This document shows, piece after piece, positions 30,291-32,491 of a stretch of 64,000 nt of DNA (positions are counted from its first letter, which is position 1; each line of letters opens with the position of its first letter). The translations under genes were made by a program, and so were the position numbers. Location of the stretch: contig CM000150.2 of NCBI GenBank assembly GCA_000004695.1, positions 3,200,001-3,264,000 on the forward strand, in the 5' to 3' direction. The DNA comes from Dictyostelium discoideum. Lineage: Eukaryota. The notes below the pieces were generated by a model. That model had not been told where the DNA came from and did not search any database. It worked only from the letters and a program-made list of their open reading frames with translations.

Positions 30291-30650
30291 CAAAGAACCA
30301 ATTATTTAAAAAACCAATTGCAATAACTGTGCTTTCGTTTAACCCATTGTGTTTATTCTTCACTAATTTCATTAGTAATAGTTTTCAAATTTGAAAGTAT
30401 CAGATGATGTCAAGCTTTTTGATAAATTCTGGATAAAAAATATAAATAATGAAAAATGATTTTAATTAGTATATAATACACTATTACAAAATTTTAATTG
30501 ATAAATGTATAACATACAGCAATTAGTCCACTATCATTTCTAGCTATCTCTTGTAATTCATTGGTAAACTTGTTTTCTTTTGGATTTGCTGAACTAAGAA
30601 TTCTACCAAATCTAATTAAACTTGAAAATCTTTTCATTTCTTTTTATTTA
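30291..30650 (-). pseudogene. Decayed paralog (copy 1) of the small two-TM protein gene that is intact at 31860..32274.
   Basis: The copy shares the same two-exon layout and a conserved intron (GTATGT donor, ...tactaatt...cattatttatat...tatccag acceptor). Exon 1 reads MKRFSSLIRFGRILSSANPKENKFTNELQEIARNDSGLIAVC. Its first TM helix is lost and exon 2 is interrupted by stops, but it ends with the conserved ...VIAIGFLNNWFFV. Confidence 0.55.
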
Positions 30651-31044
30651 GTTTATTTTTTTTTTTATTTTTTTTTTTTAATTATTTGTTTAAAACTATT
30701 GTATTTTAAATTAATTGTTTTTTTTTTTTTTTTTTTTTATTTCTGATTGTGCTTTTATAGTTTAAAAACATATGTACTGACACTTTAGTAGGTGTCTGTC
30801 CCTAAAAATTTCTTATTCATAAATTATAATTTTCAGACTCAGATATTTTTTTTTTTAAAGTGTCAGTCTCCTTTTTTTTTTTTTTATTTTTTAAATATGG
30901 GTAATTAAGAGTGTCAGTATTAAAATAAATAAAAAAAGATCCAATTTAATATTAAATTCTATTTACAAAAAAAATTATTTTGTTTTTATTTTATTTTAAT
31001 TTATTTTTTTTTTTTAAATACGTTTCAAATAATTCCTAATAAAA

Positions 31045-31440
31045 TCCTGCACAAAGAACCAATTATTTAAAATACCAATTGCAACTAATGGACTTTGATT
31101 ATATGTATGACATGGATGTACTTTAGCTATTGAAAAAAATAAAAAGCCTTAAACTTTGAAGATATCGAATGTTGCAAACCCTCTCTCTATCAAAAACTAA
31201 ATAAAAAATAAAAAAATGAAAATGATTAGTAATTTATTAAATATAATATATAAATAAATATTTGATTGACATGTAAAACTTACAACAATTAATTCATCTC
31301 TTCCACTAGCTTTATATTGTAGTTTAAATTAATTGAGAAATAAATTTTGATCTCTTTGTTGGATTAGTAATAATAAAAATTGCACCAACGCCAATTAAAC
31401 CTATTATTGTTCTTGAATACATTTGCTTTTGTCACAAAAA
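31045..31440 (-). pseudogene. Decayed paralog (copy 2) of the small two-TM protein gene.
   Basis: Exon 1 reads MYSRTIIGLIGVGAIFIITNPTKRSKFISQLI*, a premature stop where copy 3 continues. The exon-2-like region reads SIAKVHPCHTYNQSPLVAIGILNNWFFVQ but is preceded by an in-frame stop. Confidence 0.5.
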
Positions 31441-31859
31441 TAATAAAAATAAATAAATAAATAAATAAATAAAAAATTTTAAACTTAAAATACCAAAAAC
31501 CAATTTTATTTTTTTATTTTTTTTTTTGATTTATTTTTTTTTTTTTTTTTTTTTTTGATATTTCCTTTTTTAAAAAATAATGCACTTCTAGGTTCCTTTT
31601 TTTCATATTAAATTTTAAATATTTGAAATTAATAGGGGGTTTATTTATAAAAATATAATAATAATTAAAATTTTTAAAAAAAACCCCTAAAAAATTTTTA
31701 TCTGGGGTATATATATAATTTAAATTATAATAAAAAAAAAAATAAAAAAAAAAATAATAAATAAATTTTAGTGTTAATAGAAAGTTTGTTTTATTTTATT
31801 TTATTTTATTTTATTTTATTTTATTTTATTTTATTTCAAGTACATATTTTAAAAATAAA

Positions 31860-32274
31860 CTAAACATTTAAACTTTTAATAAAGAACCAATTCTTTAAAA
31901 AACCAATTGCAACAACTGAATCTGTACTATGTGGTGGAGGATTTAAAAATGCTAATGAAAAAAAGATATGATCTTCAATTGTGAACAAATCTAATAATGC
32001 CATCCCTTTTGCTGCCCAACCCTGAATAATATATATATATATATATATAAATAATGAAAAAAAAAATGATTAAATTAGTAAATGTACACACCAAAATTAC
32101 AATATCACTTGTGCAACCATTGGTGGGGGTAAATGGTTTACATACTGCAATAAATCCACTCTCTTTTTTAGTTTTCTCTTGTAGTTGATTTGCAAATGTT
32201 TCCTTCTCTTTTGGATTTGTAGCAATAAAAATAGCACCAACTGCAATTAAACCTAAAATTTTACTTGAAAACAT
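31860..32274 (-). CDS. Small two-TM membrane protein of about 114 aa (intact copy 3 of a tandem triplet), join(31860..32021,32092..32274).
   Basis: The product is MFSSKILGLIAVGAIFIATNPKEKETFANQLQEKTKKESGFIAVCKPFTPTNGCTSDIVIL|GWAAKGMALLDLFTIEDHIFFSLAFLNPPPHSTDSVVAIGFLKNWFFIKSLNV*. The 71-nt intron has a GTGTGT donor, a tactaat branch-like motif and an attattcag acceptor. Its position is conserved in all three copies. Confidence 0.55.
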
Positions 32275-32491
32275 TTCTTCTTTATTTAATTATTTTTTAC
32301 AATAACTATTTTTCTATTTTTCTTTTTTTTTTAAAATGGTGATTTTATTTTATAATCCTAAAATTTCTTTTTATTTTTAAATTGTGTTTCCACAGGTGTC
32401 TTAGTTATAGATTTTGAAAAAAAAAAAAAGAAAAAAAAAAATAAAAAAAATAAAAAATTTTAAAATTCCACAGGTGTCACTCTTATTTGTG

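Follow-up and report, generated by a model that had tools for sequence, protein, structure and literature searches.

A 64,000-nucleotide (nt) stretch of Dictyostelium discoideum chromosome 1 (assembly GCA_000004695.1, contig CM000150.2, positions 3,200,001 to 3,264,000; hereafter the window) carries on its minus strand three paralogues of a very small gene, arranged head to tail and numbered here copies 1 to 3, among which only copy 3 keeps an open frame. The locus is a lineage-specific tandem array in which unprocessed duplicates undergo birth-and-death turnover. Structure prediction and profile comparison suggest that the encoded proteins most likely form a eumycetozoan family of miniature Tim29-like proteins, and copies 3 and 1 are preceded by repeated sequence modules with a GACAC core, which are candidate promoter elements. 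This combination of a decaying array, a small Tim29-like protein and GACAC promoter modules for copies 3 and 1 is the best explanation of the locus as a whole, at a probability of roughly 0.7.

All three copies contain a single phase-0 intron at a homologous position, directly after G-[FL]-[IV]-[AV], and each intron includes a TACTAAT (32080 in copy 3, 31231 in copy 2 and 30471 in copy 1). The introns are short and of the GT...AG type, measuring 124 nt in copy 3 (GTATGT donor), 87 nt in copy 2 and 89 nt in copy 1, in a window of ~20% G+C. A previous reading of the window, made from its sequence only, had described a head-to-tail, minus-strand triplet with a common exon–intron structure, a position-conserved intron with a tactaat motif, and premature stops everywhere except in copy 3; all of this is borne out by the location of the copies (Table 1) and by analysis of their frames.

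Copy 2 carries a 10-nt insertion at ~31322–31331, which places the earliest in-frame stop at 31324–31326, and a nonsense change of GAA to TAA at 31149–31151. In copy 1, a 1-nt deletion and a local rearrangement past TAT TAC lead into the stops TAA TGA at 30369–30374. The N-terminal helix of copy 1 is also no longer hydrophobic, as had been noticed from the sequence: its highest 19-residue Kyte–Doolittle value is 0.95, near the C terminus, compared with 1.88 for the N-terminal segment of copy 3. Sequencing error was considered as the source of the lesions in copies 1 and 2 and was ruled out, because an independent second assembly (L002, GCA_054883475.1), 99.7% identical over 11 kb, has the same lesions in both copies. 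Nor does alternative splicing offer a way around them, since no GT–AG model was found that frees copies 1 and 2 of their lesions. Both copies are thus paralogous to an intact neighbour, retain the intron and the flanks, and bear disabling mutations, as is typical of unprocessed tandem pseudogenes. The array resembles other birth-and-death families in its head-to-tail duplicates with intron and flanks kept, its lineage-specific lesions, its variable copy number (three versus four) and its relaxed constraint; nothing about it is unusual in this respect, the gene being very small (two exons, 96 codons) and the genome extremely AT-rich.

Table 1. Coordinates of the paralogues and upstream motif sites (positions in the window)
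Feature	Position	Strand	Details
Copy 3, intact gene	31860..32274	minus	ATG 32274, TAG stop 31860–31862; part of reference model DDB_G0269652
Copy 3, exons and intron	exon 1 32146–32274; intron 32022–32145; exon 2 31860–32021	minus	intron GTATGT...CAG; exon 2 includes the stop
Copy 2, unprocessed pseudogene	31014..31422	minus	ATG 31422, end 31014
Copy 2, exons and intron	exon 1 31284–31422; intron 31197–31283; exon 2 31014–31196	minus	intron GTAAGT...TAG
Copy 1, unprocessed pseudogene	30271..30637	minus	ATG 30637, end 30271
Copy 1, exons and intron	exon 1 30518–30637; intron 30429–30517; exon 2 30271–30428	minus	intron GTATGT...CAG
Copy 3, proximal motif	32388..32400	minus	TTCCACAGGTGTC on the plus strand, GACACCTGTGGAA on the gene strand
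Copy 3, distal motif	32466..32478	minus	exact second copy of the 13-mer
Copy 1, promoter cluster	30777..30917	minus	four GACAC-core sites: 30777–30783, 30790–30796, 30860–30866, 30911–30917

The history of the array was reconstructed by comparing the window (AX4 or a strain nearly identical to it) with two sister lineages, L001 (GCA_054859355.1) and L003 ('D. cf. discoideum', GCA_054859235.1), L002 being a near-identical assembly. L001 is ~85% identical to the window in the array and ~92% identical in the flanking genes, and its copies 3, 2 and 1 are all intact open reading frames (ORFs) of 96, 98 and 97 residues, respectively. L003 has four copies, of which A (the copy 3 orthologue), B (an extra, copy-3-like member) and C (the copy 2 orthologue) are intact. 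Copy C, at 92 residues, has neither of the copy 2 lesions of the window, and the same is true of L001. The fourth, D, is orthologous to copy 1 and disabled by another frameshift/deletion in exon 1 and another TAA; because these lesions are not those of the window, copy 1 has been lost twice independently. The synonymous divergence (dS) of copy 3 is 0.12–0.14 for L003 versus 0.035 between the window and L001, making L003 the most divergent of the three lineages, and with L003 as the outgroup the window's lesions are derived and recent. By the Kyte–Doolittle measure, the hydrophobic N terminus of copy 1 is already gone in all lineages. The three units arose by unequal duplication of the whole gene, intron included, and for copies 3 and 1 the promoter was carried along as well.

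These comparisons also bear on the splice model of copy 3, for which three in-frame donors are possible (GTATGT at 32145, GTAATT at 32100 and GTGTGT at 32091) and for which the annotators' choice differs among P0001, P0002 and P0003. Relative to the window, L001 has a 10-nt deletion and a 1-nt insertion in the segment between the outer donors, so that the same nucleotides are frame-shifted between the lineages (PTNGCTSDI versus LPMVATSNI), and in L003 read-through of this segment runs into a stop codon. Both observations mark the segment as intronic, which excludes intron models of 70 and 79 nt and makes a 124-nt intron with a 96-residue product the more likely structure; the ~70-nt intron of the earlier reading fits the alternative GTGTGT donor only. 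The position of the GTATGT donor is, moreover, common to all paralogues and to the related genes of D. firmibasis and D. purpureum described below. The predicted product of copy 3 is MFSSKILGLIAVGAIFIATNPKEKETFANQLQEKTKKESGFIA up to the exon junction and GWAAKGMALLDLFTIEDHIFFSLAFLNPPPHSTDSVVAIGFLKNWFFIKSLNV beyond it. The TACTAAT motif was dropped as noteworthy in itself, since exons of this AT-rich region contain it as well and it varies in L003.

The AX4 reference annotation represents the array differently. The copy 3 protein matches D. discoideum entries, and the annotated models DDB_G0269652 and DDB_G0269650 can each be translated exactly from the window. The former (119 residues) splices copy 3 (to 31904) to the tail of copy 2 (from 31126) across a 777-nt intron (31903..31127, GTTTTT...CAATAG), and the latter (47 residues) is exon 1 of copy 1 read on into the intron (30490–30637). 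A search of the literature for DDB gene identifiers found nothing. Taken at face value, these models would mean that copies 1 and 2 are alive, through alternative or chimeric splicing or as short peptides, and the 777-nt intron does possess a GT...AG pair, while the promoter block and TATA box of copy 1 are still conserved. The chimeric intron is, however, the only model that 'rescues' pseudogene sequence; it is unusually long, has a weak donor, and spans the conserved C terminus and stop of copy 3, and the resulting chimera would double part of a predicted β-sheet. What makes it implausible is the state of the sister lineages, where every unit stands alone as a full gene and has a conserved C terminus of its own: copy 2 is a complete ORF in both L001 and L003, and copy 3 there also ends in GFLKNWFFIKSLN(V). 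With the GTAATT donor used for copy 3 in two other D. discoideum assemblies, three pipelines have given three models for one gene, which suggests prediction artefacts, and the lesions of copies 1 and 2 are derived and lineage specific. Survival of these two copies is accordingly judged very improbable, and the two AX4 models look like artefacts when set against the sister sequences.

The encoded protein belongs to a small family. An exhaustive HMMER search with a profile of the paralogues found 11 proteins, essentially all of ~93–99 residues, in Tieghemostelium (T. lacteum), D. firmibasis, D. purpureum, Polysphondylium violaceum, Acytostelium, Heterostelium and Physarum, that is, in other dictyostelids as well as Physarum. 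Six residues are invariant across the family (N20, P21, F27, S65, G83 and W88). The members from D. firmibasis and D. purpureum are unlinked to the array and have unrelated genomic surroundings; their intron position is that of the array. Among annotated AX4 proteins, a search for the orthologue of the unlinked D. firmibasis gene returned the query alone, the word index used being lossy and its silence no proof of absence. A further protein, P0011 (1,068 residues, ENA, internally repetitive), matched the first profile with an expectation value (E) of 2e-7 over 37 residues and was treated as spurious. Four Physarum-like sequences (P0015–P0018, from JGI/ENA/Logan; environmental or unspliced calls) depart from the Physarum transcript exactly at GFIG/VC. 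This is what the translation of a retained intron beginning GTNTGY would be expected to look like, and it suggests that the phase-0 site is common to Myxogastria and Dictyostelia.

NCBIfam gave no match for the family, searching PDB sequences with the family profile or with individual proteins gave nothing meaningful, and the window's own proteins had only chance-level matches in Pfam (ATP19, CIMR, Tim29). AlphaFold2 models of copy 3 and of the D. purpureum member (mean predicted local distance difference test scores of 75.7 and 74.8) show the same layout, with a helix at residues 4–19, helices at 24–39 and 41–52, and then four strands. The protein would thus comprise a transmembrane (TM) helix, the invariant N-P directly after it, two amphipathic helices, and a four-stranded β-meander ending in AIGxLxxWFF.

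This layout differs from that of an alternative built on the sequence-only reading, in which a two-TM hairpin protein is encoded by an array co-regulated through an E-box (CAGGTG) by a basic helix–loop–helix (bHLH)/Snail-type factor. Copy 3 does have two hydrophobic patches, with Kyte–Doolittle values of 1.88 (residues 1–19) and 1.45 (residues 51–69), but the value exceeds 1.6 in the N-terminal segment only. The second patch (IFFSLAFL) is a hydrophobic run of just 8–9 residues, set amid aspartate, glutamate and histidine (D, E, D, H), and is modelled as β-strands in both predictions; two hydrophobic segments of ~18–20 residues are therefore not present. Hydropathy and AlphaFold2 agree on one segment of TM strength, at the N terminus, and the copy 3 protein is best described as a putative single-pass, N-terminally anchored protein with its TM helix at ~4–19. 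The other half of the hairpin-and-E-box proposal is taken up with the promoters below; on both counts together it is improbable.

The predicted fold points to Tim29 (TIMM29, PF10171, formerly DUF2366), a subunit of the human TIM22 carrier translocase. In a Foldseek search of the PDB, chain C of 7CGP (human Tim29 in the TIM22 complex) ranked first with a probability of 0.95, the runner-up reaching 0.06. In Pfam, Tim29 is the best match for 4 of the 11 members, at sub-threshold E values of 0.004–0.13, with colinear matches in both halves of the protein; the highest score, 17.1 bits (E 0.0041) for the D. purpureum member, does not reach the gathering threshold of 25 bits, and copy 3 itself has no match to Pfam Tim29. 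For direct comparison, residues 60–189 of human Tim29 were checked against the PDB sequence and aligned with the family by hhalign, giving a P value of 0.014 over 79 columns at 27% identity, with P21, F27, N60, S65, G83 and W88 each aligned to an identical Tim29 residue. When the family hidden Markov model was run on the real Tim29 segment, its score was attained by only one of 5,000 composition-matched shuffles. The predicted models show one TM helix, a helical pair and a superposable β-sheet domain, as in Tim29, and the signature residues are colinear with those of bona fide Tim29.

The likeness to Tim29 is confined to the core, the alignment covering human residues 60–174 and not the full-length architecture. 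Human Tim29 has 260 residues compared with ~95 in this family, which is without a ~25-residue insertion. The phylogenetic range differs as well: Tim29 has been described as metazoan- or mammalian-specific (PMC5455965, PMC7050145), whereas this family occurs in Eumycetozoa. A miniature Tim29-like protein nevertheless remains the most likely identity of the family, with the mitochondrial inner membrane as its likeliest location and the α/β domain predicted to lie in the intermembrane space.

A different view is that the Tim29 likeness reflects generic α+β similarity and that the family is unrelated to Tim29, being a signal-anchored protein of eumycetozoan (or DUF4359) type that resides in the secretory pathway or in a different membrane. 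DUF4359 (PF14271) comprises small proteins, mainly from bacteria, that have an N-terminal anchor and no assigned function; they resemble the family in size and in layout (TM helix, N-P, helices and a C-terminal hydrophobic/aromatic strand). A literature search on DUF4359 yielded nothing relevant. Against this view, four independent kinds of test converge on Tim29, namely Pfam, two structure-search programs applied to template-free models, the profile alignment with its six matched fixed residues, and the shuffle test (~2–4e-4), and no member scanned against the 2025 copy of Pfam matches PF14271 at E<=10. Generic similarity is considered somewhat unlikely. The UniRef label of the Heterostelium member P0012, 'Cystatin domain-containing', was not reproduced with the 2025 Pfam.

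The second component of the favoured account concerns the sequences upstream of copies 3 and 1. In the 64 kb there are exactly two instances of the motif CCACAGGTGTC, at 32390–32400 and 32468–32478, both upstream of copy 3; the earlier reading had the count right and the positions slightly off (32391 and 32466). Its expected number is 0.11, and none of 100 shuffles reached two, so that within the window the motif is non-random. The two occurrences belong to a longer 13-mer, TTCCACAGGTGTC, present in two copies 78 nt apart, of which the proximal one lies ~115–125 nt upstream of the ATG and ~35–50 nt upstream of a TATAAAA at 32348–32354. Upstream of copy 1, where a cluster of GTGTCAG and AGGTGTC had been reported, all three GTGTCAG of the window indeed lie at 30777–30917, and all three AGGTGTC lie within the promoters of copies 1 and 3. 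The proximal pair of copy 1 sites is inverted (GACACCTACTAAAGTGTC) and stands ~20–40 nt upstream of a TATAAAA at 30753–30759. Of the 19 GACAC in the window, 6 fall within 566 nt of sequence preceding copies 3 and 1, where 0.17 would be expected (binomial P 1e-8), all such statistics being post hoc, as the pattern was picked after it had been seen. A scan of 29000–33500 with Rfam (E<=1) found no RNA family, and the cluster therefore does not belong to a known non-coding RNA gene; a literature search for the motif strings together with Dictyostelium returned primer sequences only.

The GACAC core persists at orthologous positions in the sister lineages. At the proximal copy 3 site it is present in all three, as GACACCTG, CTGACACTTG (L001) and GTGTCAGACACCTG, the L003 form also being written GTGTCAGACACCTGAGG. 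L003 has kept the distal copy 3 site (GACACCTGTGT, with a spacing of 79 nt to the proximal one), which has degenerated in L001. All three lineages conserve the copy 1 block CAGACACCT(A/C)CTAAAGTGTCAGTACA...CTATAAAAGC. The motif is shared by copies 3 and 1 and not by the whole triplet: upstream of copy 2 there is no GACAC motif in any of the three lineages, even where copy 2 is intact, nor is there one upstream of the unlinked genes in D. firmibasis and D. purpureum. In copies 3 and 1, then, a TATA box would be preceded by repeated ARGTGTCW (GACAC) modules in both orientations. Because the cores are perfectly kept amid diverged AT-rich flanks, these modules probably bind a sequence-specific factor.

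The lineages also separate this core from the E-box. The window 13-mer does hold CACCTG/CAGGTG, an E-box (CANNTG) of the kind recognized by bHLH, Snail and ZEB factors, and CACCTG is present in both window 13-mers and both L003 sites. In L001, however, the hexamer is CACTTG at the proximal site and degenerate at the distal one while the proximal GACAC stays. Neither the copy 1 promoter nor that of copy 2 contains the hexamer: the copy 1 sites are without CANNTG, and copy 2 has no site at all. A CANNTG shared by co-regulated genes at orthologous sites was thus not found, and the conserved unit is ARGTGTCW/GACAC (GACAC/GTGTC at its core) rather than the E-box-like CAGGTG that had been put forward as the regulatory element.

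Whether the GACAC modules act at all was weighed against the view that they are functionless, a neutral relic of duplicated promoter modules of ~50–80 nt that is conspicuous against a background of ~15% GC. Both 13-mers do lie within a diverged duplicated module of ~80 nt (flanks 32399–32452 and 32481–32534 are 80% alike), and the pair would represent an old internal duplication of one such module; tandem modules of 51–56 nt also occur in the promoters of copy 1 and of L003 copy B, and the distal site has decayed in L001. The WGACACYT count of 5, moreover, is not above the window-wide expectation of 3.05. What counts against neutrality is that the 13-mer is identical in both modules when their flanks are only ~67–80% alike, that GACAC cores occupy orthologous positions in three lineages despite an indel-rich intergenic identity of ~85% between the window and L001, and that all five WGACACYT in the 64 kb lie in these two promoters, in both orientations, 20–130 nt upstream of the TATA boxes. 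A purely neutral origin is therefore considered rather unlikely, and functional GACAC modules are preferred.

In L001, a 26-nt insertion at ~11455–11510 (corresponding to ~30775–30800 in the window) creates a perfect 23-nt inverted repeat, AGAAATTTTTAGGACAGACACCT / AGGTGTCTGTCCTAAAAATTTCT, that surrounds the proximal copy 1 motif and has the appearance of a palindromic duplication, by template switching, of the GACAC element. In L003 the extra copy B was noted at 4734–4917 and 5131–5502, and its promoter contains three tandem units of 54–56 nt, the first two holding AAAGAGTGACACAC and the third AAAGAGTGGTAC. Copy number and the number of promoter modules are both variable between lineages.

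Several points weigh against the account as a whole. Transcription of any copy, the 96-residue splice model and promoter function are all inferred. Tim29 has an N-terminal presequence/matrix segment and a C-terminal extension, and the family has neither; in its proteins the TM helix comes first, and this helix might just as well be a signal anchor for the endoplasmic reticulum. The D. purpureum member P0007 (F0ZTP5) is labelled 'DUF4359 domain-containing' in UniRef, a label that was not reproduced. On the promoter side, one of the six GACAC sites is lost in L001, the sharing of the motif is partly descent from duplicated promoter modules, and the enrichment figures, as said, were computed on a pattern already seen. 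Finally, the ratios of nonsynonymous to synonymous substitution (dN/dS, Nei–Gojobori), which are 0.84–1.02 for copy 3 orthologues, 1.16 for copy 2 and 1.6–1.7 for A versus B, rest on few synonymous substitutions (2–10) and on a method that is biased in AT-rich DNA, and values near 1 are also compatible with a dispensable copy 3. Nothing points to strong purifying selection beyond the few fixed residues.

On this last ground, the entire array, copy 3 included, might be dispensable and drifting, with the essential member elsewhere in the genome as an orthologue of RB653_002751 (D. firmibasis) or DICPUDRAFT_92555 (D. purpureum). Every array comparison gives a dN/dS within 0.84–1.7, members have been lost repeatedly and independently, and the two species named carry unlinked single genes in different genomic contexts. 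Yet copy 3 is intact in four of four assemblies, with its splice sites, invariant residues and promoter modules kept; dN/dS is a weak guide with so few synonymous changes; and the AX4 orthologue of the unlinked gene was not found among annotated proteins, a negative that the lossy index keeps from implying absence. Wholesale dispensability is considered unlikely.

The array is flanked by a divergent F-box gene (ATG at 33164, plus strand) and by a PH-domain gene (26604–29060, minus strand). The F-box neighbour (33164–38114, plus strand; Pfam F-box-like, E 3.6e-06) is itself tandemly duplicated (~33.2–35.5 kb and ~35.9–38.1 kb), with copies that are 88–92% identical and a third paralogue further along in L002. 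Low-complexity sequence was noted at 31790–31845 and 32820–32850: an (AAAAT)n microsatellite of ~10 units directly follows the copy 3 stop, and the intergenic regions also hold long poly(A)/poly(T) stretches as well as a (TTA)n run. Such low-complexity DNA is typical of Dictyostelium, and it accounts for the indel-rich character of the intergenic alignments.

As a gene cluster, the array is an ordinary small tandem family with unprocessed pseudogenes, useful chiefly for the correction of annotation. It also offers a clean and datable case of birth and death, with three intact copies in L001, a single one in AX4 and a total of four copies in L003, and its ARGTGTCW modules provide a candidate for a cis-element, few of which have been defined in this genome. 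A more far-reaching interpretation, which is entertained only tentatively, is that the family is a genuine minimal Tim29 homologue. The ancestral form would then have been a small single-pass protein that goes back at least as far as the ancestor shared by Amoebozoa and animals and is possibly related to bacterial DUF4359; a conserved member would act with TIM22 in the inner membrane of Eumycetozoa, and the array would be a fast-evolving, lineage-specific and partly decayed expansion with a GACAC module of its own. If this were true, Tim29 would not be a metazoan invention, and a stripped-down relative of this TIM22 accessory subunit would exist in Amoebozoa. The evolution of the carrier translocase would have to be reconstructed anew, and a protein of 95 residues would provide a genetic model for the Tim29 core domain.

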